From: an uncultured bacterium
Lineage (GTDB): Bacteria > Ratteibacteria > UBA8468 > B48-G9 > JAFGKM01
DNA length: 59,331 bases
Direction: 5' to 3'
Assembly: GCA_964413825.1 (NCBI GenBank)
Contig: CAYPTS010000002.1
Span: 1-59,331 of the forward strand
The translations under genes and the position numbers were made by a program. This document shows positions 2,899 to 51,744 of this stretch, in pieces. The number at the start of each line of letters is the position of its first letter. Positions within the stretch are counted from its first letter, which is position 1. The notes below the pieces were generated by a model that saw only the letters and a program-made list of their open reading frames with translations, was not told the DNA's origin and searched no databases.

Positions 2899-3984
2899 AT
2901 GCCGGAAGTAAAAACGAAGGTTGCGGTGGTAACGGGTCCCACGGGAGGGCATTTTTTTCCCGGCTTGGCTATGGGAGAGGGGCTGGCGGAGAAAGGAAAG
3001 ATTGAGGTGTATTTTTTCGTGCCGCGCAGGAGGTATCTGGCCGACTGGCTGGAAAAGAAGGGTTTTGGATATAATTTCATACCGGAGGTCAGACTCACCT
3101 TTAGAAACTTTTTATTTCCTGTGAAATTCCTGCATGCTTTTTTCCGCGCCTGCCTGTTTTTATCGGCCGGCAGGTTTGACTGCGTTGTTATTACCGGCAG
3201 TTATGCGACGGTCCCATTTCTGGCGGCGGCGAGGTTTTTCCGCGCGAGAATTTTCGTTCATGAGCAGAATTACCTTCCGGGCAGGGTGACAAAAATCTCC
3301 GCCCGGATTGCGGACCGCATAGCGCTTTCGTTTTCGTCTTATTCGGGCCTTCCGGAAAAAAAGTGCGTTGTTTCGGGTTTCCCCGTCATGAGTGATTTTA
3401 TGCGGCGTTTTCCGAGAGCCGGGGTGCTGGATGAGTTTGGTTTTTCTGCAGGCAACAAGACAGTTTTGGTTCTCGGCGGCAGCCAGGGAGCGCTTTTTAT
3501 CAATGAGTTGATAATCAGGAATCTGGAGTTTTTAAAGGGAAAAAATGTGCAGTTTCTGCACCTTGCCGGCAGGGGAAAAGATGTGCTTGCAGGTGAATAC
3601 GGCAAGCATGGAGTACCGGCGAGGGTTTACGATTTTTATTATGATATGGCGAAACTATATTCGGTTGCGGACCTCGTTATATGCAGGGCGGGAGCGGGAA
3701 CTCTTGCGGAAATAAGCGGATGGAATCTGCCGGCCATAGTTGTTCCGTATCCCTATGCGGGCGGGCACCAGAAGTACAATGCGCTGTATTTTGAGGAACG
3801 CGGGGGCTGTAAAATGCTTGAACAGAACATGGAAAGCATAAAGGCTTTTCCTGCAGTGTTTGAAAAAGCGATTAAAGAACTTGATGTGATGAAACAAAAT
3901 ATGAAAAAGGCGTCTATTGCGGATTCCCGCGGTGGTAACGTCGACCGGATATTGGAGCTGCTGGATGGAAAAAAACATTCTTGA
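2899..3984 (+). CDS. murG: Undecaprenyldiphospho-muramoylpentapeptide beta-N-acetylglucosaminyltransferase
   Basis: VAVVTGPTGGHFFPGLA.., VLVLGGSQGA.., ADLVICRAGAGTLAEI.. and ..GGHQKYNA.. are GT28 MurG motifs. Confidence 0.9.
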   Translation: MPEVKTKVAVVTGPTGGHFFPGLAMGEGLAEKGKIEVYFFVPRRRYLADWLEKKGFGYNFIPEVRLTFRNFLFPVKFLHAFFRACLFLSAGRFDCVVITGSYATVPFLAAARFFRARIFVHEQNYLPGRVTKISARIADRIALSFSSYSGLPEKKCVVSGFPVMSDFMRRFPRAGVLDEFGFSAGNKTVLVLGGSQGALFINELIIRNLEFLKGKNVQFLHLAGRGKDVLAGEYGKHGVPARVYDFYYDMAKLYSVADLVICRAGAGTLAEISGWNLPAIVVPYPYAGGHQKYNALYFEERGGCKMLEQNMESIKAFPAVFEKAIKELDVMKQNMKKASIADSRGGNVDRILELLDGKKHS

Positions 3985-8655: not shown

Positions 8656-10503
8656 ATGATTAACGTCAAAAAGACACTGCCCGTGCTGGTATTTTTTGTT
8701 GCGGCATCCATGGGTTGCTGCAGCGAATGGTTTCAGAAAAACAGGGAGTTGGCGGCTGTTTTCCATCCGCGCGTATGGACTTACATAGAAATGGCCGGAA
8801 ACGAAGATGCTGCGGGGAGACAGAAGGAAGCCGATTCACTGCTCAGGCGCGCCGAAAGAAAGATAGAAGAGGCAAAGCCCTTCATGCCCGGCAACTGGCC
8901 TATGGGATGGCCGCAGGACGGTAAAAACACGCTGAAATTTCTGCAGTATGCGGCTCCCGATGCATATATGTACAGAATTATAGGAGATTATGCCTATTCG
9001 CACAACAGGATGAAAGAGGCGCTGGCATATTATGAAAAATACATTCTGCATTCCGTCGTTTCCGATACGGATTATATGGCAAAAATGGCGGATATCTTTC
9101 AAAAAGAAGGCAGGCCGCGGGATGCAATAATAGTTTACAACAATATTTACAGTGTGGTGGAATCAAAAAATTTTCACGGGACAGGTTTTTCCCGGAATTA
9201 TCTGACAGGCAAAATCAAAAATCTGAATATGCAGATTAGGAAACCCAATGTCCTGCTTCTCGACATATTTTTTGTCGGCATCGGGGATTATACCATGAGC
9301 GACATTCAGCAGATGTTGACGGAAAAAACCATGGGAATGAAGGAATTTTCCATTCTGCCGAGACGGGATTTTGACAGGGTAATGGCTGAAGAATCTCTGA
9401 CTAAAGAGGATTTGCAGTATCCCGATGAATTGTCAAACCTGGGCAAGATGTTGAATGCGGATTATATAATCAGGCCTTCGCTTACGCTTATAGACGGATA
9501 CTATATTTTTCATGCGGACGTTTTCGACCCCGCGAGAAAAATATGGTTTGAAAACTACGAATACAAGACCCTGTCGCGCATTAACATTGCAAATCTTGTC
9601 GACCGCTTTACATGGCAGTTCAGGGGCAGGGAGATACCTGCGGGATTGCTTTTGCCGGAGAGTGATTCTCTCTGGGAGTATGAAACCGACAGTCTGATAA
9701 ACGACCTCCGGATTTCTTCCGGGGGCGAAAGGATTATTGCGGGATGTGACAGCGGTGCGGTTTACGTTTTCAATGCAAAAGGAACGGTGCTCAGGAAATT
9801 CAAGATGTCTGAAAAAATACTGAAGACCGCGGTTTCGCCCTGCGGGAAGTTTTACTCGTGGCTCGCTCTTGACGGCAATGTCTTTTTTGCCGAAGAACCC
9901 GGCAGAGTTGTCAGGTGGAGTGAAAAACTTGGAAACCAGGGAAGGGACATTGATATTTCGAAAGACGGAAGGTTTGTTGTTATAGGAGTAAACAACGAGG
10001 TGATTTTCAAAGACCGGCGGGGCGAGATTTTCTGGCGGGAAACCGTACCTCATTGGGCGACAAAGATAAAAATATCCGGGGATTCCCACAGGATTTTTGC
10101 GGGCATGGAAAACGGTGGCTATTGGTGTTTTTCAGACGAGGGAAACATTCTTTGGAAGAAAAATCTCGGCAGCAGGATAACTGACATAAAAGTATCCGCC
10201 GGTAACTACAGTTGCGCGGTTAACGTTAGCGGAAAAACTTTTGTTTATGACGAAAAGGGGAATGAAGTTATGAACTTCGACGCGGGCAAGGATATGCAGT
10301 ATTCCGCTTTCAGGCCCGATGTGATAGAACTGCTTTCCGGAAAAAAAGGCAAGTACGTATATCTGCTGTCCGCCGATAAAAACCGGCTGTGGGAATACAG
10401 CCTCAGCGGCAAGGTGAATTTTATCGATGCCCTTTCTGACGGCAGGTTCATATGCGCGGTGGAAGGGAAAAACATTTTTACTTTTAGAACGGTCTGGAAA
10501 TAA
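8656..10503 (+). CDS. Large lipoprotein: TPR-like N-region, LpoB/CsgG-like alpha/beta domain and C-terminal beta-propeller-like repeats
   Basis: Signal plus lipobox (..VAASMGC). Middle segment NVLLLDIFFVG..RRDFDRVMAEESL..LGKMLNADYIIRPSLT. C-terminal repeated ..G.V.VF...G..LW pattern. Starts 2 nt after the preceding stop. Confidence 0.55.
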   Translation: MINVKKTLPVLVFFVAASMGCCSEWFQKNRELAAVFHPRVWTYIEMAGNEDAAGRQKEADSLLRRAERKIEEAKPFMPGNWPMGWPQDGKNTLKFLQYAAPDAYMYRIIGDYAYSHNRMKEALAYYEKYILHSVVSDTDYMAKMADIFQKEGRPRDAIIVYNNIYSVVESKNFHGTGFSRNYLTGKIKNLNMQIRKPNVLLLDIFFVGIGDYTMSDIQQMLTEKTMGMKEFSILPRRDFDRVMAEESLTKEDLQYPDELSNLGKMLNADYIIRPSLTLIDGYYIFHADVFDPARKIWFENYEYKTLSRINIANLVDRFTWQFRGREIPAGLLLPESDSLWEYETDSLINDLRISSGGERIIAGCDSGAVYVFNAKGTVLRKFKMSEKILKTAVSPCGKFYSWLALDGNVFFAEEPGRVVRWSEKLGNQGRDIDISKDGRFVVIGVNNEVIFKDRRGEIFWRETVPHWATKIKISGDSHRIFAGMENGGYWCFSDEGNILWKKNLGSRITDIKVSAGNYSCAVNVSGKTFVYDEKGNEVMNFDAGKDMQYSAFRPDVIELLSGKKGKYVYLLSADKNRLWEYSLSGKVNFIDALSDGRFICAVEGKNIFTFRTVWK

Positions 10504-10509
10504 GAAGAC

Positions 10510-10651
10510 AAAATCAAAGCCCCTCGCAAGAAGAACGGGGGTTCGGGAGTCGGGATTGGGTGTTCCCCGTAAAGAAAAAACGGGGCAAGCGGGAAAGACA
10601 AAGGAAGAGAAGAGTTTTTTCGAATCCCTAATACCGAATCTCTAATCCCGG
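10510..10651 (+). repeat. Leader-element type B, copy 1 (upstream of the oxidoreductase gene)
   Basis: AAAATCAAAGCCCCTCGC..GGTTCGGGAGTCGGGATTGG..TTCCCCGTAAAGAAAAAACGGGGCAAGCGGGAAAG..GAATCTCTAATCCCGG. The 72-nt core differs at only 3 positions from the reverse complement of 16794-16892 (hand alignment). Confidence 0.9.
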
Positions 10652-10687
10652 TACTTAATTAGTTTGAGACAAAGGAGGATATGCAAA

Positions 10688-11701
10688 ATGGTTAAGATTG
10701 GTATAATTGGAGCAGGGTTTATGGGAAGTATGCATGCGAGCGTTTACAATCTTTTGCCTGATGCCGCAATTGTCGGGATTGCCGACATAAGGGGAGAAAA
10801 GGCAAAGTCTCTGGCGGCGAAGTATAAAACAATACCGTATTATGACCCCCAGCAGTTGTTCGACAAACAGGATATTACGGTCATTGACGTTTGTCTGCCG
10901 ACGTTCATGCACAAGGAATACGTTATTAAGGCCGCGGAAGCAGGCAAGGACGTATTGTGCGAGAAACCGATTGCGCTTACCGTCGAGGATGCCGATGAGA
11001 TGATAAAGATTTGCAAAAAAAACAATGTCAGGTTTATGGTGGCGCACGTGATAAGATTCTGGGACGAATACCGGTTTTTGAAAGAGGCGTTCGACAGGAA
11101 AACTTACGGAGAGTTGAAATCTCTTTCATGCAGGCGTCTTTCTGCCCTGCCGACTTGGGGATGGCAGGACTGGCTTCTCAATAACGATAAATCCGGAAGT
11201 GCCGTAGTCGACCTGCACGTTCACGATACGGATTTTATAAGGTATCTCATTGGAGAGGAACCCGGAAAAATTTATTCCAAAACGTTAAAAGACGAAATAC
11301 CTTATTCGCATATATACACCACATTTTCTTTCAAAAACGGACTTGTGGTGAGTACGGAAGGGGGATGGGACTATCCCGCGTCATTTCCCTTTGAAATGAG
11401 TTATATCGCTAAGTTTGAAAAGGCGGTGCTTGACTTCAACTCGAGAAATACTCCTTCGCTTACGGTTTATGAATCATCCGGCAAGGTGGACAGACCTGTC
11501 TTTGAAAAGGTGAAGGTTGACGGGGCAGAAGGCAACATAAGCGACCTCGGCGGGTATTTCTTCGAGCTAAGGTATTTTGTCGACCACGTGTCGCATAACA
11601 AGCCTTTCAATGTGGTTACCCCCGAGGATGCCAGAGATTCCCTGCGCCTGATTTTGAAGGAAAAAGAGTCTGCCGATAAGGCCGCTGAAATTTCCCTATG
11701 A
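10688..11701 (+). CDS. Gfo/Idh/MocA family NAD(P)-dependent oxidoreductase
   Basis: MVKIGIIGAGFMGSMHA.., EKPIALT and a Rossmann N-terminus. AGGAGG lies 9 nt upstream of the ATG at 10688. Confidence 0.85.
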   Translation: MVKIGIIGAGFMGSMHASVYNLLPDAAIVGIADIRGEKAKSLAAKYKTIPYYDPQQLFDKQDITVIDVCLPTFMHKEYVIKAAEAGKDVLCEKPIALTVEDADEMIKICKKNNVRFMVAHVIRFWDEYRFLKEAFDRKTYGELKSLSCRRLSALPTWGWQDWLLNNDKSGSAVVDLHVHDTDFIRYLIGEEPGKIYSKTLKDEIPYSHIYTTFSFKNGLVVSTEGGWDYPASFPFEMSYIAKFEKAVLDFNSRNTPSLTVYESSGKVDRPVFEKVKVDGAEGNISDLGGYFFELRYFVDHVSHNKPFNVVTPEDARDSLRLILKEKESADKAAEISL

Positions 11702-12588
11702 AAGTCGGGTCTGTATCTATCGTAGGCAAACCGAATGTCGGGAAGTCGACCCTTATCAACAGTCTGCTGGGTTATAAGGTTTCCATCGTATCTGCGCATC
11801 CCGCAATTACCAGGATAAAAATACTCGGAGTGTATAATTCCGACCGGGGGCAGATTGTAATTCTCGATACACCGGGTTTTGAGAAGAGCCGCAATGAACT
11901 CGGCAGAATGATGTTGAAAACCATATTCAGTTCGGTTGACGACGCCGACCTGATATTGCTTGTAATAGGTTCGCGCGGATGGGATGAAGACGATGAAAAG
12001 ATAATGGAGTCCCTCCAGAAATTCAGGAAAAAGACAATTCTTGTGATAAACAAGGTGGATAAGGTTTCACACAAGGAATTGCTTTTGCCCCTTATAAAAG
12101 AGAGTTATGAGAAATACGATTTTGCCGACGTAGTGCCGGTTTCCGCTTCGAGAAAAAAAAACATAGATGTTCTAAGGGAGTGTATCTTCAGGCATCTTCC
12201 TGATGGCGAGAAGATGTTCCCCGATGAGATGGAGACAAACATTCCCGTGGAATATGCCATAGCGGAAATTATAAGGGAAAAGGCCGTCGATAAAACCTAC
12301 CAGGAGGTTCCGCAGTCCATAGCGGTTGAGGTTGAGGAGATGTCATCCGGGAAGCAAAACAAGGATATGGCGGTTATAAAGGCAAACATTATAGTGGACA
12401 GGGAAAATCTGAAAAGTATCATCATCGGCAAAAACGGCGCAAAACTTAAGGTAATAGGCAAACTTGCAAGGGAAGAAATAGAGGATTTTCTCGGTAAAAA
12501 GGTTTATCTTGAATTGTGGGTCAGGGTTATAAAAGGGTGGAGGGACAGGCCTGATGTTTGCAGGAAGTTTGGTTACGGCGATATGTAG
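11698..12588 (+). CDS. era: GTPase Era
   Basis: IVGKPNVGKSTLIN, DTPG, NKVD and a C-terminal KH domain (..IIGKNGAKLK..). ATGA overlap with the preceding gene. Confidence 0.93.
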   Translation: MKVGSVSIVGKPNVGKSTLINSLLGYKVSIVSAHPAITRIKILGVYNSDRGQIVILDTPGFEKSRNELGRMMLKTIFSSVDDADLILLVIGSRGWDEDDEKIMESLQKFRKKTILVINKVDKVSHKELLLPLIKESYEKYDFADVVPVSASRKKNIDVLRECIFRHLPDGEKMFPDEMETNIPVEYAIAEIIREKAVDKTYQEVPQSIAVEVEEMSSGKQNKDMAVIKANIIVDRENLKSIIIGKNGAKLKVIGKLAREEIEDFLGKKVYLELWVRVIKGWRDRPDVCRKFGYGDM

Positions 12589-12640
12589 CGGACTGTTTTC
12601 ATCCGGAGAGCGGCGTTGGCTGCGTCGTCATCTTTGCCAG

Positions 12641-12692
12641 GTGGGAGAGGTCTCCTGACCTCGAAATCGGCATCGGGAGATGCCTCCCACAA
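12641..12692 (+). repeat. Hairpin repeat type A, copy 2
   Basis: GTGGGAGAGGTCTCCTGACCTCGAAATCGGCATCGGGAGATGCCTCCCACAA, between the convergent era and lon-like genes. Homologous to 2765-2817. Confidence 0.8.
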
Positions 12693-12800
12693 GTATGCCT
12701 CCTCGCTTCCTCCTTGCCGTCTTGCTCTCCGGCGAACTCAATCCGCTAATACAGCAGATTGCCTTCATCCCGATTTCACTTCAAACACATAATCTCCAAA

Positions 12801-15230
12801 TTACTTTGAACTCTTTCTGGATTTTCTGCGCTTTTCTCCCGGAAGTTTCTGGTGCCGAAGGTAGTTTTGCGTGAGTTGCTCAAGTTTCTTTGTTACCAGG
12901 TAGTTCACGCTTCCTTTGGGATAGTTTCCTTTTTTGTCTTTTTCCCCTGCCGGAACTCCCGTGAGGATTTCGATGCCTTCATCGATGGCCTTTACCGACC
13001 ATACGTGAAATCTGCCTTTTTTGACGGCATCAATGACTTCGTCCTTCAGCATTAGATGTTTCAGATTGCTTCGGGGAATGATTACACCCTGTTCTCCTGT
13101 AAGGTTGTTCATTTTGCAGGTATAATAAAAACCTTCTATTTTTTCGTTGACGCCGCCTATAGGCTGGATTTCCCCTCTCTGATTTACCGAGCCGGTTACC
13201 GCTATTCCCTGCTTTACAGGAAGCCCTGAAAGAGAGGAGAGCAGGGCATATAATTCGGCGGATGATGCGCTGTCCCCTTCAATCTCTTCGTATAACTGCT
13301 CAAAACATATGCTTGCGCTGAACACCGCAGGTTTGCTGTCCACGTATTTTTCACCGAGATATCCGCTTAATATCAGGAATCCCTTGTTGTGAATCGTCCC
13401 GGAAAGCTTTACTTCGCGGTCTATGTTTATCATGCCGCCTCTTCCCGTATACACCCTTGCGGTTATCCTTGAAGGTTTGCCGAAAGAATAATCTCCGAGA
13501 GTAAGCACGGAAAGCCCGTTGACCTGGCCGGTTTTTGCCCCGTCCACATCGACCATAATCGTGCCTTCCTTGATGAGTTCTTCAAGCCGTTTCTCTATAA
13601 GATTGGAACGAAATATCTTTTCTTCAAGGGCTTTGTCCACATGTCTTTTTTCGACGACTTCCGAACTTTCCGAGATAGCCCAGAAATTCGATTCCCTTAT
13701 GATGTCTGCTATTTCAATGAACCGCGTCGTTAGTTTGTTCTGGTCTGATGCGAGACGCGAGCCGTATTCAACTATCTTGCATACGGAGTCCCTGTTAAAA
13801 TGCTGCAACTTCTCTTCCCTGCAGATGGTGCTTATGAAAGAGGCATAGTTTTTCACTCCTTCGCTGTCGCCGTCCATGATGGTGCTGAAGTCCGCCTTTA
13901 CCTTGAACAGTTTTTTAAATTCTTCGTCATAAGAAAAGAGCAGATAATAGAAAAGGGGGTTTCCTATAAGGAGTATTTTTACATCGAGGGGAATGGGTTC
14001 CGGTTTCAGCGTGGGGGTATTGATAAGGCGGAACTGTTCATTCAGGTCTTCTATTACTATTTCCTTGTTTTTTATCGCTCTTTTGATTATCTCCCATGAA
14101 AAGTAGTTTTTCAGGATGTCTATCGCCTGAAGAATCAGGTATCCTCCGTTGGCTTTATGGAGCGCACCGGGTTTTATCATTGTGAAGTCCGTTGCCATCG
14201 CTCCATACTGAAACGGCTTGTATTCAATCCTTCCGCTCAGGTTGTATGAAGTCGGATTGGATTCCTTTATTACGGGCGCCCCTTCTGTTTTCGAGTTGTC
14301 GATAAAGACGTTTACCTGATACTTGTAGAGGGCGGACGGCTTTTCCGGAAGTTTGACGCCTGGAAGTATTTCGACGTCCTTTTTTTCCTTGAAATCTTCC
14401 ACGTTGTCAACCATGTCTTTTTCAACGTCGGACAGATATTTCAATACCGCCGGGAGTTTTCTATATTTTTCCTTTAATTCTTCTATCCGCGGGTTTATCG
14501 TATACCTTGCCGTTTCGGTTTCGAGGGCAGTCAATTTCTGCTGGGCTTCCTTTTCCAGTTTTCTTATTTCCCTCGATACAAGGGTAAGTTGTTCATGAAG
14601 AATTTCCTGCTTCTTCTTTATTTCCTCCTTTGCTTCCTCCGTCAGTTTTTCCATGTCTTCTTCTTCAATCGTTTTGCCTTCAACGGTGGGAACGATTACT
14701 ATTCCCGAAGGCGTTTTTTTAATCTGGAAATTGGCAGTTTTTGCGCCGTTTTCAAGTTTCTCAAACAATGCATTGCGCTTGTTCTGAAAATCCTTTATTA
14801 TGAGATTTTTGTGGTCCTCGTACATCTGGCTTTCCAGTTCTTTCGGAAGTTCTGTCTGGAGTTCGTCGGTCAATGCATCCATGTCCTTTTTGAAGTCAAC
14901 GGCTTTGCCGGAAGGCAGTCTAAGAGCGGTAGGCGTATCCGGATTCGAAAAATTGTAAAGATAGCACCAGTCCTGCGGGACAGGCTGGTTTTCCGCCGTT
15001 TTCTTAAGCGCCTGTTCAACGGAAGTTGTCTTGCCAGTGCCGGAAATACCCGTAACGAATATGTTGTATCCGTCGCTTTTTATCTTGAGTCCGAACTCAA
15101 GCGCCTTTTTTGCGCGTTCCTGCCCTATAATTCCTTCGAGAGGAGATATCTCCTCGGTCGTGGTGAAATTGAAATGATTACCGGTGCATTCCTTTTTGAG
15201 TTTTTCCGGTGGAACACTGTATTTTTTCAT
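12801..15230 (-). CDS. Lon-like (LonC/COG1067-type) protease: AAA domain with coiled-coil insertion plus Lon_C proteolytic domain
   Basis: GQERAKKALEFG.., VTGISGTGKTT Walker A, a long charged coiled-coil insert, and C-terminal ..EGDSASSAELYALLSSLSGLPVKQGIAVTGSVN..G.I.PIGGVNEKIEGF. Confidence 0.85.
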   Translation of the reverse strand: MKKYSVPPEKLKKECTGNHFNFTTTEEISPLEGIIGQERAKKALEFGLKIKSDGYNIFVTGISGTGKTTSVEQALKKTAENQPVPQDWCYLYNFSNPDTPTALRLPSGKAVDFKKDMDALTDELQTELPKELESQMYEDHKNLIIKDFQNKRNALFEKLENGAKTANFQIKKTPSGIVIVPTVEGKTIEEEDMEKLTEEAKEEIKKKQEILHEQLTLVSREIRKLEKEAQQKLTALETETARYTINPRIEELKEKYRKLPAVLKYLSDVEKDMVDNVEDFKEKKDVEILPGVKLPEKPSALYKYQVNVFIDNSKTEGAPVIKESNPTSYNLSGRIEYKPFQYGAMATDFTMIKPGALHKANGGYLILQAIDILKNYFSWEIIKRAIKNKEIVIEDLNEQFRLINTPTLKPEPIPLDVKILLIGNPLFYYLLFSYDEEFKKLFKVKADFSTIMDGDSEGVKNYASFISTICREEKLQHFNRDSVCKIVEYGSRLASDQNKLTTRFIEIADIIRESNFWAISESSEVVEKRHVDKALEEKIFRSNLIEKRLEELIKEGTIMVDVDGAKTGQVNGLSVLTLGDYSFGKPSRITARVYTGRGGMINIDREVKLSGTIHNKGFLILSGYLGEKYVDSKPAVFSASICFEQLYEEIEGDSASSAELYALLSSLSGLPVKQGIAVTGSVNQRGEIQPIGGVNEKIEGFYYTCKMNNLTGEQGVIIPRSNLKHLMLKDEVIDAVKKGRFHVWSVKAIDEGIEILTGVPAGEKDKKGNYPKGSVNYLVTKKLEQLTQNYLRHQKLPGEKRRKSRKSSK

Positions 15231-15258
15231 TTATTCACTCCGTATCGTGCAAAGCCGA

Positions 15259-15287
15259 TTGAAAAAAATGTTGAAAAAACGTATAAT
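15259..15287 (+). promoter_or_regulatory. Sigma70-like promoter TTGAAA-17 nt-TATAAT upstream of rex
   Basis: TTGAAA at 15259-15264 and TATAAT at 15282-15287, with a 17-nt spacer. Confidence 0.5.
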
Positions 15288-15333
15288 AATGATACCGGTT
15301 TTGAACAAAAAAGTCAATTGCGGTGCGGTGAAA

Positions 15334-15966
15334 ATGGCGAAAAAAAACAGCATTTCCCAGGAAACCATCAAGCGCATGATTACGTATCTCCGGTATCTTG
15401 AGGCGCAGAAGAAAAAAGGCGTGCGGATAATTTCTTCAAAGGACGTCACTTCTTTTCTTAACGTCCCGCCGGAACAATTCAGAAAAGACCTTTCTTTTTT
15501 CGGCGGGTTCGGCAAGAGAGGCGTCGGGTATGACGTAAACAATCTTCTGGAAACAATCAAAAAAATACTCGGTCTCGATAAAACGATTAGAGCGGTGCTT
15601 GCAGGAGCCGGACGGCTTGGAGCGGCTTTAATCCAATATCCGGGGTTTTCCGGCATAAACATCGATATTATCGCCGCTTTTGACAATGATTCCGCCAAGA
15701 TAGGCAAAACGCTTAAAAACACGAAAATACGCGACATTAAAAAAATCGGGGATTATACAAGAAAAAACAGGGTAAGGGTGGCTTTGTTGTGCGTACCTGC
15801 GGATGCCGCACAGTCTGTAGCGGACGTTCTTGTGCGTTCAGGTGTGAAAGGCATACTTAATTTTGCCCCTGTAAGGCTGATTCTGACTGCCGACGTTTAT
15901 GCGGGGAACGTGGATATGGCATCGGAACTCGGTAATGTGGTATACCACATGAAGGTACCGGATTGA
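15334..15966 (+). CDS. rex: Redox-sensing transcriptional repressor Rex
   Basis: ISQETIKRMITYLRYL.., FGGFGKRGVGYDV and a LAGAGRLGAAL Rossmann motif. Start set at MAKKNS. Confidence 0.85.
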   Translation: MAKKNSISQETIKRMITYLRYLEAQKKKGVRIISSKDVTSFLNVPPEQFRKDLSFFGGFGKRGVGYDVNNLLETIKKILGLDKTIRAVLAGAGRLGAALIQYPGFSGINIDIIAAFDNDSAKIGKTLKNTKIRDIKKIGDYTRKNRVRVALLCVPADAAQSVADVLVRSGVKGILNFAPVRLILTADVYAGNVDMASELGNVVYHMKVPD

Positions 15967-16042
15967 TTTTTAGCCGCCGATGCATTGCGGGGTCGTAATA
16001 ATGGTTGTAATGATAGAATAAACCTACTGGGAGGTGGTGCAT

Positions 16043-16558
16043 ATGAACGTACACGAAGCAATAAGGATAAGGAGAAGCGTCAGGGTGTATCAGGACAAAC
16101 CCGTTCCGGAAGACGTATTGAAGCGCATCCTGGAAGCTGCAAGACTGGCGCCTTCGGGCAACAACCATCAATCGCGCAAGTTTGTGGTGGTGACGGACAG
16201 AATTATAAAGGAAAAACTTGCACAGGCCGCTAAAAACCAGAGTTTTGTGGCGGAAGCGCCGGTGGTGATAGCTGCAGTGGGGTTGAACCCCGAAAAAATA
16301 ATGTCCTGCGGTATTCAGGGGGACCCGGTTGACGTGGCGATATCGGCGGACCACATGACGCTTGCGGCTGTAGAAGAGGGGCTCGGCACTTGCTGGATAG
16401 GCGCTTTTCTTCAGGACCAGGTGTGCGGTATTCTAAACATTCCCAAACCGTACAGGGTTATAACACTGCTTACCCTCGGATATCCTGCGGATACTTCTGG
16501 AAGCAAGAACAGAAAATCTCTTGGAGAGGTGGTATGTTACCAGCAGTTCAGTCTATAG
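16043..16558 (+). CDS. Nitroreductase family protein
   Basis: EAIRIRRSVRVYQDKPVP..ILEAARLAPSGNNHQ. GGGAGG lies upstream of the ATG at 16043. Confidence 0.85.
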   Translation: MNVHEAIRIRRSVRVYQDKPVPEDVLKRILEAARLAPSGNNHQSRKFVVVTDRIIKEKLAQAAKNQSFVAEAPVVIAAVGLNPEKIMSCGIQGDPVDVAISADHMTLAAVEEGLGTCWIGAFLQDQVCGILNIPKPYRVITLLTLGYPADTSGSKNRKSLGEVVCYQQFSL

Positions 16559-16762
16559 TTTGAAGATAAATATCATTACCCGGGTTATAAGGGAAGCCGC
16601 AAGAAAAGAGAAAAGCAGCATATAGCCGAGTGTTATCAGTACCATCTTGTAATGTCTTGAGGGGCTTCTCATAATTAAGGCAAGGTTTGATACGAAAACT
16701 GCCAGAAGAGACAAAGCCCATATTGCAATGCCCAGAAAAAAGAATATCTGCAAGTTTTCCAT
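16553..16762 (-). CDS. Small two-TM membrane protein, unknown function
   Basis: 69 aa with two hydrophobic segments. AAAGGAG RBS supplied by leader-element B copy 2. Confidence 0.4.
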   Translation of the reverse strand: MENLQIFFFLGIAIWALSLLAVFVSNLALIMRSPSRHYKMVLITLGYMLLFSFLAASLITRVMIFIFKL

Positions 16763-16774
16763 TGTTCTCCTTTG

Positions 16775-16918
16775 CCCCCGAACTTTTTAAAAGCCGGGAT
16801 TAGAGATTCAGAAATGCTTTTCTCTGCCTTTGTCTTTCCCGCTTGCCCCGTTTTTTCTTTACGGGGAACCTCCAATCCCGACTCCCGAACCTCTGCTTTT
16901 TTGTGAGGGGTTTTGATT
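16775..16918 (-). repeat. Leader-element type B, copy 2 (sense with the downstream minus-strand gene 16553-16762)
   Basis: The reverse complement reads AAATCAAAACCCCTCACAAAA..GGTTCGGGAGTCGGGATTGGAGGTTCCCCGTAAAGAAAAAACGGGGCAAGCGGGAAAG..GAATCTCTAATCCCGG..AGTTCGGGGGCAAAGGAGAACAATG. Confidence 0.9.
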
Positions 16919-17012
16919 TATTATATATCTGTAGCATTTTCTGTCAAACGTTCCATAGATTTTGACTTGAAAATGGCCGGCGGTCGGTGTATAATTAGAT
17001 ATAATATTTACG

Positions 17013-17095
17013 GCCGGAGTGGTGGAATGGCAGACGCGCCGGACTCAAAATCCGGTGAGGGCAACCTCGTGAGGGTTCAACTCCCTCCTCCGGCA
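17013..17095 (+). tRNA. tRNA-Leu (anticodon CAA), class II with long variable arm, no encoded CCA
   Basis: Acceptor GCCGGAG/CTCCGGC, anticodon arm CCGGA-CUCAAAA-UCCGG, variable arm, and T-arm GAGGG-TTCAACT-CCCTC, folded by hand. Confidence 0.9.
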
Positions 17096-17380
17096 TAGCA
17101 ATCTTCTTTGAAAAGAGGGAGTTGAAGGGAGCGAAGATGTTCGGCTCCGATGAATAAGAGGAGCCATGCGGGTGGCCTACCCGAGCAGTATCGGGATGCG
17201 AGGGAGCCAACTCCCTCCTCCGGCATAGCAATCTTCTTTGAAAAGAGGGAGTTGAAGGGAGCGAAGATGTTCGGCTCCGATGAATAAGAGGAGCCATGCG
17301 GGTGGCCTACCCGAGCAGTATCGGGATGCGAGGGAGCCAACTCCCTCCTCCGGCATAGCAATCTTCTTTGAAAAGAGGGA
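17070..17380 (+). repeat. 130-bp perfect tandem array (2 full units plus about 25 nt) seeded in the T-arm and acceptor 3' end of tRNA-Leu
   Basis: Units 17096-17225 and 17226-17355 are identical by eye. Each ends GAGGGAGCCAACTCCCTCCTCCGGCA, mimicking the tRNA end GAGGGTTCAACTCCCTCCTCCGGCA. A third partial unit runs to about 17380. Confidence 0.95.
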
Positions 17381-19752: not shown

Positions 19753-19873
19753 AAAATCAAATAGCAGAAAAAAGTCAGCCGGGATAAACTGGGGGGGAGC
19801 AGAGAAACAGAAGAAGAGAAAAGCATTTCCGAATCTCTAATCTCTGCTTTTAAAGAGTTCGGGATAAAGGAGG
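19753..19873 (+). repeat. Leader-element type B, copy 3 (partial, upstream of the CBS gene)
   Basis: AAAATCAAATAGCAG.. then AGAGAAAAGCATTTCCGAATCTCTAATCTCTGCTTTTAAAGAGTTCGGGATAAAGGAGG, matching the 3' half of copy 2. Confidence 0.75.
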
Positions 19874-28890: not shown

Positions 28891-29048
28891 AAAATCATAA
28901 CCCCTCACTGCACTTGTCATTGCGAGGCAGAGCCGAAGCAATCTTGTATTAAGGTTGAGATTGCCGCGCCGGAAGACGCCCGCCTACGTCAAGATTACGG
29001 CGGACATGGCTCGCAACGGCAGAAAGCGCCGGTTCGGGGTAAAGGAGG
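28891..29048 (+). repeat. Leader-element type C, copy 1 (with about 40-nt internal insertion)
   Basis: AAAATCATAACCCCTCAC..CTTGTCATTGCGAGGCAGAGCCGAAGCAATC..TTAAGGTTGAGATTGCCGCGCC..GGCTCGCAA..CGGTTCGGGGTAAAGGAGG. Confidence 0.9.
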
Positions 29049-33055: not shown

Positions 33056-33062
33056 AAGATAG

Positions 33063-33170
33063 TAAATCGAAGCTCCTCAGCACTTGTCATTGCGAGCGGA
33101 AGCGAAGCAATCTCAATGACAATTCGACAAACAGCGTTCCCCGTAAAACAAAAACGGGGCAAACGGGAAC
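33063..33170 (+). repeat. Composite leader element: type C 5' arm fused to the type B core hairpin
   Basis: TAAATCGAAGCTCCTCAGCACTTGTCATTGCGAGCGGAAGCGAAGCAATCTC.. followed by GTTCCCCGTAAAACAAAAACGGGGCAAACGGGAA. Confidence 0.8.
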
Positions 33171-42690: not shown

Positions 42691-42791
42691 TTTAATCCCT
42701 CCAGTGTTTATAACCTGCCGTTTAACGCTTTAATATAATATAAAAAAGGGATATGTACAAAATAATTTGACTTGGAATGGCAAACAACTAA

Positions 42792-43100
42792 AATAGATTA
42801 GGATGCAATTTAAAGAAGAGAAAAACATGGCAGGGCATTATAAGCGAACCGTATACAGATTACAAGTCTATCGCAAGGAGATATAAAGACTGTTTCATAG
42901 CAGGGGAGGGGGACGTAAGGGTGTTGATGCGCAACGATGCCGCGGAGATAAGAAAAATGGTACTTGCAATGGTGGAGACGGCAAAGATGTCAAAGGGATA
43001 TATGATGTGCATAGGAAACCACATACCTTTTAACGTCCCCCCGGAAGCGGTTAAACTTTATTTTGACCTGTCCGCCGAACTTGCCTACCGTTCCGAGTAA
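42792..43100 (+). pseudogene. 3' remnant of a URO-D-like gene (no start codon or N-terminal two-thirds)
   Basis: The open frame with no upstream ATG reads ..YKSIARRYKDCFIAGEGDVRVLMRNDAAEIRKMVLAMVETAKMSKGYMMCIGNHIPFNVPPEAVKLYFDLSAE.., the typical C-terminal end of URO-D-like proteins. Hand translated. Confidence 0.45.
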
Positions 43101-43373
43101 GGTAACCGTCCGAACGCCTGGCGCTTTTCACCTTATCTTGCAACTGTGCTTGCGCACTCACACGTCAACTCTTTCCCTTTCTCTTCCACCGCTTATCATA
43201 TCCTTATATAGAATCTCAGCGTTAAATCGATAATTTGACTTGAAGAGAAAAATGAGTAAAATAAGGGAAGTATAAAAACTTCCAATTTAAAATCCTATAG
43301 AAGGAAGACATAAATCAGGGCCCTTCACTATGTGAAAGATACAGGTGAGGGTTCGGGACAAGGAGGAATTGCG

Positions 43374-46097
43374 ATGGCTAACGATAAGTATGTGTATTTT
43401 TTCGGAGGAGGTAAAGCTGACGGCGAAGGAAGCATGAAGGAACTTCTCGGGGGAAAGGGTGCAGGTCTTGCCGAAATGGTGAAACTTGATATTCCGGTAC
43501 CGGCAGGATTTACCATAACTACTGAAGTCTGTACATATTATTATAAGAATGACAAGCGTTTTCCCGATGGATTGGAAGACAGCATAAAAGAAAACCTTTC
43601 AAACGTAGAGGGGATAATGGGCAGTAAATTCGGCGATATGGAGAACCCCCTGCTTGTTTCCGTGCGCTCCGGTGCAAGGAAGTCCATGCCGGGTATGATG
43701 GAAACCGTGCTTAACGTCGGGCTGTGCACGTCGACCATTCCCGGACTTATCAAGAAAACGAACAATCCCCGCTTTGTCTATGATGCATACAGAAGGCTTA
43801 TCATGATGTATTCCGACGTTGTCATGGAAAAGGCCGCGGGCAAAGAAGTTGAAGAGGGCAAAGGTATCAGGGTACAGCTGGATGGAATGATGACAGAGGT
43901 CAAGGAGTCAAAAGGATACAAGTCGGATACCGACCTTACGGCCGAAGACCTCAAGGATTTGTGCGAAAGCTTCAAGAAGCGGGTAAAAGAGGTTATAGGC
44001 GAAGAATTCCCGGACAATGCATGGGAACAGTTGATGGGCGGCATAAAGGCCGTTTTCCAGTCATGGAACGGAAAAAGAGCGGTTTCCTACAGACGTATAG
44101 AAGGAATACCTGACGAGTGGGGTACGGCTGTCAACGTACAGGCGATGGTATTCGGCAACATGGGAAATACCTCGGCTACGGGCGTGGCGTTCTCGCGCAA
44201 TCCTGCAACCGGAGAGAATAAATTTTACGGCGAATGGCTCGTTGATGCCCAAGGTGAGGACGTTGTTGCAGGAATAAGAACTCCGAATCCGCTGAACGAA
44301 GAGACCAAAAACGAACAAAACCGGCATCTTCATTCGCTTGAGGAGGCAATGCCCGATGTTTATAAGGAATTGAGCGGTATCAGGGCGAAACTTGAAAAGC
44401 ATTTCAAGGATATGCAGGATATAGAATTTACAATTCAGGAAGGAAGGCTGTGGATGCTGCAGTGCCGCGTCGGTAAGAGGACAGGCACGGCGGCTCTGAA
44501 TATGGCGATGGATATGCTCGGAGAGGGACTGATAGACAAGAAAGAGGTTGTGATGCGCCTTACAGCCAGCCAGATTGACGAACTTCTTCATCCGCTCGTT
44601 GACCCCAAAGCGGAAGCGAAGACCAAAGCCCTTGCCAAAGGTCTGCCTGCCGGCCCCGGAGGCGCCCAGGGACAGATAGTTTTTACCGCCGATGATGCGG
44701 TCAAGTGGGCGAAACAGGGTAAAAACGTAATTCTTGTAAGGGAAGAGACCAACCCCGAAGATGTCGAAGGAATGAGGGCGGCGCAGGGCATTCTTACCGG
44801 AAGAGGCGGGATGACCAGCCACGCCGCTCTGGTTGCCAGAGGATGGGGCAAGTGCTGTATCGTCGGGTGCGGCGCCTTGAAGATAGACGTTCATAAGAAA
44901 ACAATGGGTGTTGACGGCAAGGTGCTTAAGGAAGGAGACAGCGTTACCCTCAATGGAACAAGAGGTTATGTCTATGAAGGCGAACTTCCCATGGTAGACG
45001 CTACGGAAAACCCGAGATTTGCCGAGTTTATGAAGATTGCTTCTTCTCTGCGCAAGATGGGCGTAAGGGCGAATGCGGATACTCCGGACGATGCAAGAAA
45101 CGCCCTTGCTTTCGGTGCTGAAGGGATAGGGCTTTTCAGAACGGAACACATGTTTTACGGGAAAGGTGCGGAAGAGCCGCTGTTCTTACTGAGAAAAATG
45201 ATTATGGCGCATTCGGCGGAGGAGAGGAGGGCGGCACTTGATGAACTGCTTCCGTATGTTAAAAAGGACATGAAGGCAACCATGGAGGTCATGAATGGAT
45301 TTCCGGTTACCATAAGGCTTCTTGACCCGCCTCTCCATGAATTTGTGCCAAAGCGCGCGGAAGAACAGGCGCGCATAGCGGAAAGTCTCGGAATATCGCC
45401 GGAAGAGTTTGTAAAAAGGTCGGAAGGCCTTCACGAGACCAATCCGATGATGGGGCACCGCGGCGTCCGTCTCGGCGTTACGTATCCCGAAGTTACAGAG
45501 ATGCAGGTCAGGGCTATTTTTGAGGCCGCGGCTGAACTGATTACGGAAGGGAAAAAGGCCATGCCGGAGATAATGGTTCCTGTGGTCGCCATGGTGGAGG
45601 AACTTAAAGACCAGAAAAAAATTGTTGACAGGGTCTACGGCGAAGTATGCGCAAAATACAGCGTCGACAAAATAGATTACATGTACGGCACCATGATTGA
45701 AATACCGAGGGCTGCCCTGACCGCCGACAAGATTGCGGCGGAGGCGGAATTCTTTTCCTTCGGAACCAACGACCTGACCCAGATGGGCTTCGGATTTTCG
45801 AGAGACGACATAGGAGGATTCGCCCCTGATTACCTCGATAAGAAAATACTTCCCCAAGACCCGTTCCAGGTTCTCGACCAGGAAGGTATAGGCGAACTGG
45901 TTGACATCGGGATAAGGCGCGGGCGGAGTACGCGTCCGAATCTGAAGGTCGGTATATGCGGCGAGCACGGAGGAGAAGCCGAATCCGTCAAGTTCTGCCA
46001 CAGGGAAAAGATGAATTACGTCAGTTGCTCTCCTTTCAGAATTCCCATAGCCATACTGGCAGCGGCGCAGGCAGCGGTGGAAGACGAGCGCAAATAA
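43374..46097 (+). CDS. ppdK: Pyruvate, phosphate dikinase
   Basis: YVYFFGGG...G...MKELLGGKGAGLAEM, GGMTSHAALVARGWGK and GTNDLTQ. AAGGAGG lies upstream of the ATG at 43374. Confidence 0.97.
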   Translation: MANDKYVYFFGGGKADGEGSMKELLGGKGAGLAEMVKLDIPVPAGFTITTEVCTYYYKNDKRFPDGLEDSIKENLSNVEGIMGSKFGDMENPLLVSVRSGARKSMPGMMETVLNVGLCTSTIPGLIKKTNNPRFVYDAYRRLIMMYSDVVMEKAAGKEVEEGKGIRVQLDGMMTEVKESKGYKSDTDLTAEDLKDLCESFKKRVKEVIGEEFPDNAWEQLMGGIKAVFQSWNGKRAVSYRRIEGIPDEWGTAVNVQAMVFGNMGNTSATGVAFSRNPATGENKFYGEWLVDAQGEDVVAGIRTPNPLNEETKNEQNRHLHSLEEAMPDVYKELSGIRAKLEKHFKDMQDIEFTIQEGRLWMLQCRVGKRTGTAALNMAMDMLGEGLIDKKEVVMRLTASQIDELLHPLVDPKAEAKTKALAKGLPAGPGGAQGQIVFTADDAVKWAKQGKNVILVREETNPEDVEGMRAAQGILTGRGGMTSHAALVARGWGKCCIVGCGALKIDVHKKTMGVDGKVLKEGDSVTLNGTRGYVYEGELPMVDATENPRFAEFMKIASSLRKMGVRANADTPDDARNALAFGAEGIGLFRTEHMFYGKGAEEPLFLLRKMIMAHSAEERRAALDELLPYVKKDMKATMEVMNGFPVTIRLLDPPLHEFVPKRAEEQARIAESLGISPEEFVKRSEGLHETNPMMGHRGVRLGVTYPEVTEMQVRAIFEAAAELITEGKKAMPEIMVPVVAMVEELKDQKKIVDRVYGEVCAKYSVDKIDYMYGTMIEIPRAALTADKIAAEAEFFSFGTNDLTQMGFGFSRDDIGGFAPDYLDKKILPQDPFQVLDQEGIGELVDIGIRRGRSTRPNLKVGICGEHGGEAESVKFCHREKMNYVSCSPFRIPIAILAAAQAAVEDERK

Positions 46098-48391: not shown

Positions 48392-48984
48392 CACGAAGGA
48401 CATTTATCAGGCAACTGGCGGCGTTTTCTCTGCTTATTTTCGGCGGCGTCCGCTTTCTCTTTAAACCCGGCAAAAGGGGTTTTATAAGGCCTCCGGGTTC
48501 CGTAACTGAAAATGATTTTAATACAAAGTGCGTGAAATGCGGCAAATGCATACTTGTATGTCCTGCAAAATGCCTTAAGCCGGTACCGATTGAAAAAGGC
48601 ATTGTCGAATGGGGGACTCCTCACGTTATCCCCAGAGAAGCAGGGTGCATAAGATGTATGAACTGTTCAAAGGTTTGCCCTTCTTCCGCCATTGCAAGGG
48701 TAGGGCGCAGCAGTATAAAAATGGGTACTGCGGAGATAAACAGGGATAGATGCCTGGTCTGGAAGCACAATAAGGACTGTCTGGTCTGCATGGAATACTG
48801 TCCTGTCGGCGCCATAGACGTGGATTATCAAGGCAGGCCGGTTGTAAACGAAGATTTATGTGCGGGCTGCGGTTTATGCGAGGAGAATTGTCCGGTAAAG
48901 GGCGAATCGGCCATAATAGTTTCAAACCGCGGAGAAAAAAGATATCATATAAAGGAAAGAAGTTACAGAGAGACAAAATCATGA
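48388..48984 (+). CDS. Tat-signal ferredoxin with four CxxCxxCxxxCP clusters
   Basis: MTRRTFIRQLAAF.., CVKCGKCILVCP, CIRCMNCSKVCP, CLVCMEYCP and CAGCGLCEENCP. Confidence 0.8.
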   Translation: MTRRTFIRQLAAFSLLIFGGVRFLFKPGKRGFIRPPGSVTENDFNTKCVKCGKCILVCPAKCLKPVPIEKGIVEWGTPHVIPREAGCIRCMNCSKVCPSSAIARVGRSSIKMGTAEINRDRCLVWKHNKDCLVCMEYCPVGAIDVDYQGRPVVNEDLCAGCGLCEENCPVKGESAIIVSNRGEKRYHIKERSYRETKS

Positions 48985-49098
48985 CCCCTAAGCGCTTGTC
49001 ATTGCGAGGCGAAGCCGAAGCAATCTCTTAATAAGGTTGGGATTGCCGCGCCATAAAACGGCTCGCAATGACGAAAAACGTCGGTTCGGGGTAAAGGA
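48974..49098 (+). repeat. Leader-element type C, copy 3 (upstream of tatA; its 5' module overlaps the ferredoxin stop codon)
   Basis: AAAATCATGACCCCTAAGCGCTTGTCATTGCGAGGCGAAGCCGAAGCAATCTCTTAATAAGGTTGGGATTGCCGCGCCATAAAACGGCTCGCAATGACGAAAAACGTCGGTTCGGGGTAAAGGAGA. Confidence 0.9.
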
Positions 49099-49107
49099 GA
49101 GAGCAAT

Positions 49108-51618: not shown

Positions 51619-51744
51619 TGTTCCCCCTGGCTCTCTCTCATTGTCATTGCGAGCCCCGTTTTCGGGGGCGCGGCAATCCCGGCCTTAACAGGAGATTGCT
51701 CCGGCTTCGCCCCGCAATGGCAAGCGGTGAGGAGTCCTGATTTT
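51619..51744 (-). repeat. Leader-element type C, copy 4 (sense with pdxJ; fills the whole hisC-pdxJ spacer)
   Basis: The reverse complement reads (TAG)AAAATCAGGACTCCTCACCGCTTGCCATTGCGGGGCGAAGCCGGAGCAATCTCCTGTTAAGGCCGGGATTGCCGCGCCCCCGAAAACGGGGCTCGCAATGACAATGAGAGAGAGCCAGGGGGAACA(ATG). Confidence 0.9.

Follow-up and report, generated by a model that had tools for sequence, protein, structure and literature searches.

Small structured repeats are common in bacteria; copies of the well-studied families are dispersed in either orientation and have accumulated downstream of genes. Repeats of the Correia, ERIC, BOX and BIME families are co-transcribed and able to alter the fate of messenger RNA (mRNA) (PMC3049150, PMC10969869, PMC3184786, PMC2229807). 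BOX elements may lie in transcribed 5' leaders, one of them being found between two T-box motifs of a trp operon, and they can raise or lower the expression of the gene behind them (PMC3049150). In the present work, we analyzed type B, a leader element present in a contig of 59,331 nucleotides (nt) from an uncultured bacterium of the Ratteibacteria (the window; position numbers are those of the whole window). Type B is a non-coding unit of ~125 nt that has been gained or lost at orthologous sites, always reads in the sense direction and lies near a start codon. Wherever a promoter can be recognized, the element sits downstream of it. From these observations we infer its function and its way of spreading, the best explanation being that type B belongs to a set of modular, self-folding intergenic repeats located in the mRNA leaders of an uncultured Ratteibacteria/Omnitrophota-like lineage.

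Type B copies at gene starts and at orthologous sites

Two full copies of the element, B1 on the plus strand (10510-10651) and B2 on the minus strand (16775-16919), are present in the window. A repeat finder reported them as an inverted repeat of 106 nt (10531-10636 and 16795-16900) with 87% complementarity, and their BLAST alignment has an E value of 2e-33. They differ at 2 positions in the 65 nt that extend from GGTTCGGG to CAAAGG and at 3 positions in 72 nt, in agreement with what a previous sequence-only reading of this DNA had described. A pattern search for the inner hairpin, TTCCCCGT..ACGGGGCAA, gave three matches in the window, against 0.00 expected by chance. The partial third copy that the sequence-only reading had placed before the CBS gene (B3) is real and decayed: its 3' half (19802-19863) is intact and 85% identical to B2, while its 5' arm and hairpin are degenerate. 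Beyond the copies listed by that reading, we found one that consists of the hairpin alone (33136-33169, plus strand); it is joined to a type-C-like module (33057-33110) and the ATG of a URO-D-family gene follows 11 nt on. A covariance model (CM), named R1 and built on an alignment (A1) of six full copies, found no type B copy in the window beyond these. Eight matches to the head motif (see below) were present in the window, for 1.27 expected. A motif match at 3619-3635 lies within the coding sequence of murG and was discarded.

The window stretch 10195-17250, with B1 and B2 unchanged, is 100% identical in the NCBI assembly GCA_022705005.1, and an ENA assembly contains an identical B2. The starts of one Logan contig and one ENA contig fall within B1 and B2, respectively, as is typical of repeats, which break short-read assemblies. 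The E value of 2e-33, the three hairpin matches against 0.00 expected by chance, the identical copies in NCBI, ENA and Logan assemblies of different samples and the related copies in another metagenome (below) leave practically no room for chance similarity or for the assembly artefact that the sequence-only reading had named as a possible source of the likeness.

Copies outside the window were searched by scanning both strands of genome and metagenome collections with the hairpin pattern. In the genome collection, seven loci matched, of which only one (L006) was a true relative, in a short form; the Listeria, actinobacterial and alphaproteobacterial loci were coding or chance matches, and a locus from the metagenome scan (L010) was likewise due to chance. 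Five contigs of the landfill metagenome Ga0172377 matched, four of them with full elements (L012-L015) and one with a short form (L011). Over the ~190 kb of relatives fetched for the comparison of orthologous sites, R1 revealed no further copy; it later matched a hairpin-less variant (L031:618-716, 67.9 bits) and a diverged, nearly palindromic one (L030:2697-2778). The family thus comprises 12 members, namely nine B-like copies, B3 included, and three short forms (33136, L006 and L011). As most copies were found via the hairpin pattern, hairpin-less variants are under-sampled. In their source records, homologues of the proteins encoded next to the copies bear the label Candidatus Ratteibacteria or Omnitrophica.

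All 12 members are sense to a start codon located ~1-30 nt downstream, in searches that covered both strands. The distance to this codon is 1-29 nt from the end of the core in the nine B-like copies, the largest value being that of B1 and the oxidoreductase ATG at 10688, and 4-11 nt from the end of the hairpin in the three short forms. The proposal of a dispersed leader-element family, each copy of which points to the adjacent start codon, therefore held for the copies found elsewhere, which are all at gene starts. In the window, the genes behind the copies are a Gfo/Idh/MocA oxidoreductase-era operon, an open reading frame (ORF) of 69 residues, a CBS protein and a URO-D-like gene; in related contigs, they are ileS, rpsP, ispH, a ribulokinase gene, trmD, an lplA-like gene, dnaK and the gene of a membrane protein. 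No pathway connects the genes downstream of the family members. B2 lies directly behind a perfect TTGACA-16-TATAAT promoter (16947-16920, minus strand). B1 lies within an operon, and no internal promoter was found in it.

Three loci were compared with those of relatives showing 77-93% protein identity, and presence/absence polymorphism was seen at all three. The spacer between the beta-propeller and oxidoreductase genes, which holds B1, measures 184 nt in the window, compared with ~76-106 nt and no type B in relatives (84, 80 and 77% protein identity); the spacer of L016 retains AAAATCAAAG and a minimal-leader-like CTTCACTATGTG. At the ribulokinase locus, L015 shares a conserved promoter (TTGAAN..ATTATTATACAAT) with L025, L026 and L028 (relatives at 83, 79 and 77% identity). 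Only ~35-60 nt separate promoter and ATG in these relatives; among the four contigs, L015 alone has type B, a whole element that follows the -10 box and precedes the ribosome-binding site. Type B is therefore an insertion in the 5' untranslated region (5'UTR) and, judging from the promoter position, it would lie inside the transcribed leader.

The leaders of rpsP and trmD show that different modules may occupy the same site. Upstream of rpsP, we found type B in L013, a long element of another family (type C, described below) in L031, whose S16 protein has 93% identity, and in L030 a repeat of a third kind. In the rpsP-trmD spacer, both L013 and L030 have type C, and L031 has the type B variant that lacks the hairpin. 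This variant (L031:612-722) occupies the entire spacer: the trmD ATG is 1 nt past its tail, with no Shine-Dalgarno (SD) sequence between the two, and an AGGTGA overlapping the rpsP stop codon is present on its 5' side. If folded, it would bring SD and AUG together. At the junction of pdxJ with the next gene, L006 has a leader made of head, SD and hairpin, and in the window the two genes overlap; conversely, type C precedes pdxJ in the window and nothing is found there in L006. Since orthologous leaders contain differing modules, we conclude that the leaders of this lineage are sites of rapid turnover of structured modules. The comparison of synteny that had been suggested thus revealed what the sequence-only reading did not foresee, namely that type B is an insertion missing at the orthologous sites of relatives and that other modules may stand there.

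Another leader repeat of the relatives (GCAGCGGTSCGATTCATCG..) was noted at ~9940-9990 of L026, before the ribulokinase gene, and at ~9880-9990 of L030, before rpsP; orthologous leaders therefore hold different repeat families in different relatives.

Modular anatomy, predicted fold and conservation

The element is multi-copy and non-coding and has a length of ~110-129 nt. It starts with an A-rich run and ACAGA, followed by GGTTCGGGAGTCGGGATT(G/A)GAGG, by the hairpin TTCCCCGT-loop-ACGGGGCAA and by GCGGGAA with a small second hairpin. The 3' arm is made of C-rich 7-nt units (GAATCCC TAAACCC GAATCGC GAATCCC GG) and ends with the tail (C/T)NTTTAA. In five of seven copies, the tail continues as TTTAA..GTTCGGGG..AAGGAG, and the shared sequence therefore takes in the ribosome-binding site. 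The number of 7-nt units is four in B1 and in each of the metagenome copies (L012-L015), and two in B2. B2 is thus most likely a form that carries a deletion of ~15 nt, as judged from this alignment, and B1 does not have the internal duplication of its own that had been attributed to it. Nor is the head AAAATCA..CCCCTCAC (AAAATCA..CCCCTC(A/G)C) a feature of all copies, contrary to what had been stated: it is present in B1, B2 and L014, and absent or degenerate in B3, L012, L013 and L015, indicating that it is a separable module.

The family as a whole has a mosaic architecture, comprising the hairpin alone (33136, L006, L011), the arms without the hairpin (L031), a type C module with the hairpin (33057-33170) and a variable head. 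Type C elements (GTCATTGCGAGG..GAAGCAATCT..GAGATTGCCGCGCC..CTCGCAATGAC) are found in the window at 28892-29047, 48976-49099, 51625-51744 (minus strand) and, as the C-like module joined to the type B hairpin, 33057-33110; they lie before a small membrane ORF, tatA and pdxJ and also occur in leaders of L013, L030 and L031. They are framed by the same head as type B and by the GGTTCGGGG..AAGGAG tail, and this head and tail also frame a cargo-free leader (43312-43388) before the pyruvate phosphate dikinase gene. Because the frame is common to B, to C and to this minimal leader, B and C look like alternative cargos within one leader frame. The relation between the two types that had been suspected is therefore supported, through shared modules.

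The insert is flanked on both sides by GTTCGGG or GAGGTTCGGG in B2, B3, L012 and L015. Where present, the flanking repeat is always the same GTTCGGG box, and it is missing in L013 and L014. The short forms of L006 and L011 have a good SD (AAAGGAG) 5' of the P3 hairpin, the AUG being 3' of it.

We noted also that GTGAGGGTTC of the minimal leader (43345-43357) and the T-arm region of the neighbouring tRNA-Leu (17058-17075) have identical sequences, and that the arms of type B (GGTTCG.. and ..CGAATCCC) each look like one half of a canonical tRNA T-arm. This likeness found no support from ARAGORN or from the Rfam tRNA model and may be coincidence.

The consensus fold predicted for the element is Y-shaped, with the stems P1 (GGTTCGGG/CCCGAAYC) and P2 (GGGATT/AATCCC) and the apical hairpins P3 and P4. 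The pairings proposed earlier, CCCCGT/ACGGGG for the inner hairpin and GGGATT/AATCCC for the outer stem, appear in single-sequence as well as in consensus folds. In the consensus, 95% of the cells are paired, as compared to 25-63% when the 3' partners were slid by one to three columns. The z-scores of the folds range from -1.2 to -3.9 across copies.

Although the arms are complementary (GGTTCGGGAGTCGGGATT with the C-rich 7-nt units), the two halves are unequally conserved among copies, with 96% identity for the 5' half and 74% for the 3' half. This asymmetry points to a sequence-specific constraint on the 5' half, ~58 nt of which are nearly invariant across two populations. B1 and B2 are 87% identical, and B2 and L014, which come from different metagenomes, 90%; the two window copies being no closer to each other, these values argue against a very recent burst or gene conversion in this genome. 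Among the explanations offered at the outset for the high identity, recent spread and gene conversion consequently fit poorly, and constraint is indicated for the 5' half. The hairpin core of L006 is 92-94% identical to that of the window, whereas their syntenic genes are 67-76% identical in DNA.

Table 1 Positions of type B modules and of adjacent expression signals in the window
Feature	Position	Strand	Remarks
B1 5' head module AAAATCAAAGCCCCTCGC	10510..10527	+	starts 7 nt past the end of the beta-propeller gene upstream (stop codon 10503)
B1 core element, tail TACTTAA	10535..10658	+	CM R1 137.5 bits; alignment A1, folds
B1 5' arm GGTTCGGGAGTCGGGATT	10540-10557	+	core alignment
B1 hairpin P3	10563-10588	+	folds; P4 comes after
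B1 3' arm, four C-rich 7-nt units	10622-10651	+	alignment A1
Shine-Dalgarno AAAGGAGG (10671-10678) and ATG (10688)	10671..10690	+	Gfo/Idh/MocA oxidoreductase (Pfam GFO_IDH_MocA)
Sigma-70 promoter TTGACA-16-TATAAT	16920..16947	-	perfect consensus, 12/12 matches; ends directly before the AAATCA head of B2
B2 5' head module AAATCAAAACCCCTCAC	16903..16919	-	
B2 core element	16787..16896	-	CM R1 113.2 bits; fold z = -3.76; identical in L022 and L024
B2 5' arm; hairpin P3; 3' arm (two 7-nt units)	16891-16874; 16868-16843; 16809-16794	-	
B2 3' module GTTCGGGGG (16783-16775), Shine-Dalgarno AAAGGAG (16773-16767) and ATG (16762)	16760..16783	-	69-aa hydrophobic ORF
B3 decayed copy	19764..19869	+	CM 19.1 bits
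Downstream of B3: GTTCGGGAT, then AAAGGAGG and ATG	AAAGGAGG 19866-19873; ATG 19877	+	CBS-domain gene
Hairpin-only copy GTTCCCCGTAAAACAAAAACGGGGCAAACGGGAA	33136..33169	+	CM 22.5 bits; ATG 33180 of URO-D-family gene
Minimal leader without cargo, AAATCAGGGCCCTTCAC..GTGAGGGTTCGGGACAAGGAGG	43312..43388	+	ATG 43386 of pyruvate phosphate dikinase

Other repeats were observed in the window. The gene for tRNA-Leu(CAA) (17013-17095, plus strand) is followed by tandem units of 130 nt (17078-17207 and 17208-17337, plus 43 nt to 17380), each of which opens with the 18 nt that end the tRNA; in the NCBI assembly of this organism, the number of units is lower by one. These units may have been left by repeated rounds of integration and excision at the tRNA, or may represent a duplication prone to slippage. 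A third repeat family is represented by a 57-nt palindrome (GTGGGA.AGGTCTCC..GGAGATGCCTCCCAC) with two copies (2766-2822 and 12641-12697) that are 86% identical; they are located between the divergent topA and murG and between the convergent era and lon and, unlike type B, are not confined to leaders. A promoter-like sequence of 34 nt (TTGACT..TAAAAT) occurs twice, 468 nt apart (42762-42795 and 43230-43263), on both sides of an apparent short gene fragment; the minimal leader and the gene for pyruvate phosphate dikinase lie downstream of both copies. Finally, two paralogous genes for AAA_14 + DUF4143 ATPases lie close to each other near the end of the window (53864-55201 and 55804-56976, both on the minus strand).

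Possible function and mode of spreading

Several known functions were considered and set aside. With Rfam 15, no family reached its gathering threshold on B1 or B2, the tRNA-Leu being the only passing hit in the window; the best score on B1 was that of D12-methyl (22.6 bits, for a gathering threshold of 57), and nothing was found on the related copies. An intrinsic terminator or attenuator was rejected, as there is no sense-strand terminator-like site in or after B1 or B2, where P3 is followed by CAAGCGGGAA. No reading frame is conserved in type B: an ORF starting with TTG (GGGATTGGAGG) runs through B1 and B2, and might have encoded a leader peptide, but L012, L013 and L015 have TTA in place of the TTG, and the frame is shifted by an indel of 2 nt in the loop. 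Masking of the SD, or an RNA thermometer, was discarded because the predicted SD accessibility (below) follows no shared logic. Integron attC sites, which have RYYYAAC and GTTRRRY core sites on either side of an imperfect palindrome and form cassette arrays on one strand, do not fit either, since GTTCGGG departs from GTTRRRY and sits 5', and since copies are found on both strands before housekeeping genes. REP or REPIN elements are palindromes of 20-40 nt located mostly downstream of genes, in both orientations or as inverted pairs, whereas type B has ~125 nt and all of its copies are upstream of, and sense to, a start codon. As to the set of genes expected for a riboswitch, the downstream genes are unrelated and the element is absent upstream of their orthologues, making the identification of type B as a riboswitch unlikely. 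Nothing similar to type B was found in viral, phage and plasmid collections, and the window encodes ordinary chromosomal genes. In the literature, the sequences retrieved only unrelated primer matches, and nothing was found on repeats in Ratteibacteria.

The reading that we favour, to which we give about an even chance of being correct, is that type B is a mobile, mosaic, self-folding module of 5' leaders. The element would be transcribed within the 5'UTR and fold into the Y shape formed by P1-P4. This fold would join the two ends of the element, so that the flanking expression signals might stay usable, which would explain why insertion is tolerated at housekeeping genes. In L031, L006 and L011, where the only good SD is on the far side of the structure, the fold may bridge SD and start codon. 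Sequence-specific recognition would concern the 5' half, which is nearly invariant and contains P3 and repeated CGGGA/CGGGG motifs; it might be exerted by a trans-acting RNA-binding factor or by the machinery that copies type B into new leaders. The net effect would presumably be that of a portable 5'UTR structure altering mRNA stability or translation efficiency, rather than that of a metabolite sensor.

Several points weigh against this reading. The transcription of type B, its folding and its effect on expression are all deduced from DNA sequence. Covariation is not significant, with one compensatory pair and 100 of 500 shuffles reaching the observed score, the copies being too similar; with its high degree of pairing, the fold is therefore plausible, though not proven by evolution. 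Sense-specific folding could not serve as proof of an RNA function: over eight copies, the sense strand folded clearly better in four, the two strands were about equal in three and the antisense strand was better in L030, meaning that the antisense strand folds as well or better in four of the eight. The predicted probability that the SD is unpaired varies from 0.18 to 0.88 between copies, arguing against a common occlusion logic. There is no transposase domain among the proteins of the 59-kb window, and no target duplication of the site-specific kind was found, the flanking box being the same at every site. Furthermore, the related sequence examined amounts to ~300 kb, with few copies, found in part through the hairpin pattern.

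In a rival reading, type B would be purely selfish DNA, of the palindromic kind represented by REPs or by MITEs (transposable elements of the miniature inverted-repeat class), without any role as RNA, its orientation being imposed by a strand-specific target in leaders such as the GTTCGGG box by the ribosome-binding site. Presence or absence at orthologous sites would be expected in this case, as would the existence of a decayed copy (B3), the lack of significant covariation and arms that behave as imperfect terminal inverted repeats with 7-nt sub-repeats; the box on both sides of the insert in four copies and the L030 variant, a near-perfect palindrome that folds better on its antisense strand, point in the same direction. 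We nevertheless consider this explanation unlikely. Classical families are enriched between convergent genes (PMC3049150), whereas all 12 members of this family are sense and near a start codon. As it does not vary in sequence from site to site, the flanking repeat is not a normal target duplication; the ends are not equally conserved (96% and 74%), unlike inverted repeats bound by a transposase, and the window is without transposase and the element without plasmid, phage or viral match. The sense orientation in the 5'UTR, right before the SD, would also be expected of a true cis-regulatory RNA, i.e., a riboswitch or the site of a global translational regulator, that defines a regulon of growth genes (ileS, rpsP, the era operon, ispH, dnaK), its presence at new genes being the result of simple duplication. 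GGA motifs occur in leaders bound by CsrA-type proteins, and type B has multiple GGA/CGGGA motifs; its ~58-nt 5' half is nearly invariant across two populations, between L006 and the window, the conservation of its hairpin core exceeds that of coding DNA, and several downstream genes have functions in translation or growth. Yet, there is no conservation at orthologous sites, and the genes also include those of ribulokinase, an oxidoreductase and small membrane proteins. The separate occurrence of hairpin and arms (L031, 33136, L006) would be incompatible with an aptamer. In addition, one copy has been retained in a decayed state, the predictions show no SD-occlusion or terminator switch common to the copies, and there is no matching Rfam family. 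For these reasons, we regard a regulatory RNA of this type as rather improbable.

Small ribozymes are known within repeats. A new self-cleaving ribozyme or an RNA-processing site carried by a repeat, which would trim the leader to a defined and stabilized mRNA 5' end, would be in keeping with the compact multi-helix junction predicted, with the invariance of the 5' strands and junction nucleotides, with the location in the leader near the SD and with the precedent of the small ribozymes and of the Correia elements cleaved by RNase III, which lie in repeats. Correia and ERIC elements do undergo cleavage (PMC3049150). However, no known ribozyme family matches, variants without the hairpin or without the arms persist, and the sequence bears no sign of a cleavage site, so that the chances of this explanation are slight indeed. 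A bolder form of the favoured reading, which we think doubtful, would be that type B and its sister modules form a transposable 'leader cassette', a mobile regulatory device acting at the RNA level that would insert itself specifically between promoter and start codon and provide a structured platform, often with its own ribosome-binding site; housekeeping genes would thereby come under a shared post-transcriptional control, in which the leader processes itself or a trans-acting factor binds the invariant 5' half. If true, this would represent a class of mobile elements selected for their function in mRNA rather than in DNA.

A family of repeats that is found only in leaders, only in sense and adjoining the ribosome-binding site of core genes suggests a very specific insertion mechanism or selection on RNA. 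If the reading of type B as a mobile, self-folding leader module were confirmed, such elements would be natural portable 5'UTR modules through which a little-known, uncultured lineage rewires the expression of its housekeeping genes, and the breaks that short-read assemblies of these genomes show at gene starts would be explained as well. With its invariant half of ~58 nt, type B offers a handle for finding the protein or enzyme that recognizes this half.

Comparison with described leader elements and repeat families

Riboswitch and T-box leaders resemble type B in that they are structured sense elements of the 5'UTR, located just before the ribosome-binding site and present several times per genome. 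Type B differs from them by the lack of coherent genes, of conservation at orthologous sites, of significant covariation, of an alternative structure acting as a terminator or masking the SD, and of an Rfam match. In leaders of the phage T4 gene 38 type, the ribosome-binding site is split, with a hairpin between SD and AUG. The short forms of L006 and L011 and the L031 variant would resemble this arrangement, as SD and AUG lie on opposite sides of a predicted structure whose folding would bring them together; in most full copies, an ordinary SD follows the element.

MIRUs of mycobacteria are intergenic within operons, oriented with transcription and set against the flanking stop and start signals. 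They consist, however, of tandem units of 40-100 bp with small reading frames, while type B is a single hairpin-rich unit without a conserved frame. REP/BIME elements of enterobacteria are co-transcribed with genes and can act on mRNA stability. Together with REPINs, they share with type B their nature of palindromic extragenic repeats organized in mosaics, but REPs have ~20-40 nt, usually lie after genes or between cistrons, are found in both orientations and depend on RAYT, in contrast to the ~125-nt element of leaders described here (REP/BIME elements are reviewed in PMC3184786).

Among MITEs, the Correia elements of Neisseria and the ERIC/IRU elements of enterobacteria are, like type B, inverted-repeat elements (of 100-170 nt in their case) that are variably present between strains. 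Both families insert both ways and with a target duplication, TA for Correia. Type B has a fixed orientation, a fixed place by the ribosome-binding site and one end that is far better conserved than the other. It has the size and character of a MITE (<300 bp, non-coding, multi-copy), but its flanking repeat does not differ between sites as the target duplications of MITEs do. Correia and ERIC/IRU elements are co-transcribed, can supply expression signals and can change mRNA processing (PMC10969869, PMC3049150, PMC2229807).

The BOX elements of Streptococcus pneumoniae (boxA-boxB(n)-boxC) are similar to type B in being short, non-coding, multi-copy and strongly folding, with modules in varied combinations. 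This likeness is architectural only, no sequence relation being seen. Type B differs from BOX by its exclusive location before start codons and by its exclusive sense orientation (12/12), and its ends are unequal and without an ordinary duplication, whereas BOX has recognized terminal inverted repeats and target duplications. BOX, RUP and SPRITE elements are over-represented between convergent genes (PMC3049150). In its behaviour, type B is thus closest to mosaic repeats (BOX, BIME) and to MITEs (Correia, ERIC); its strict orientation and position, its unequal ends and the absence of an ordinary target duplication set it apart from every named family.

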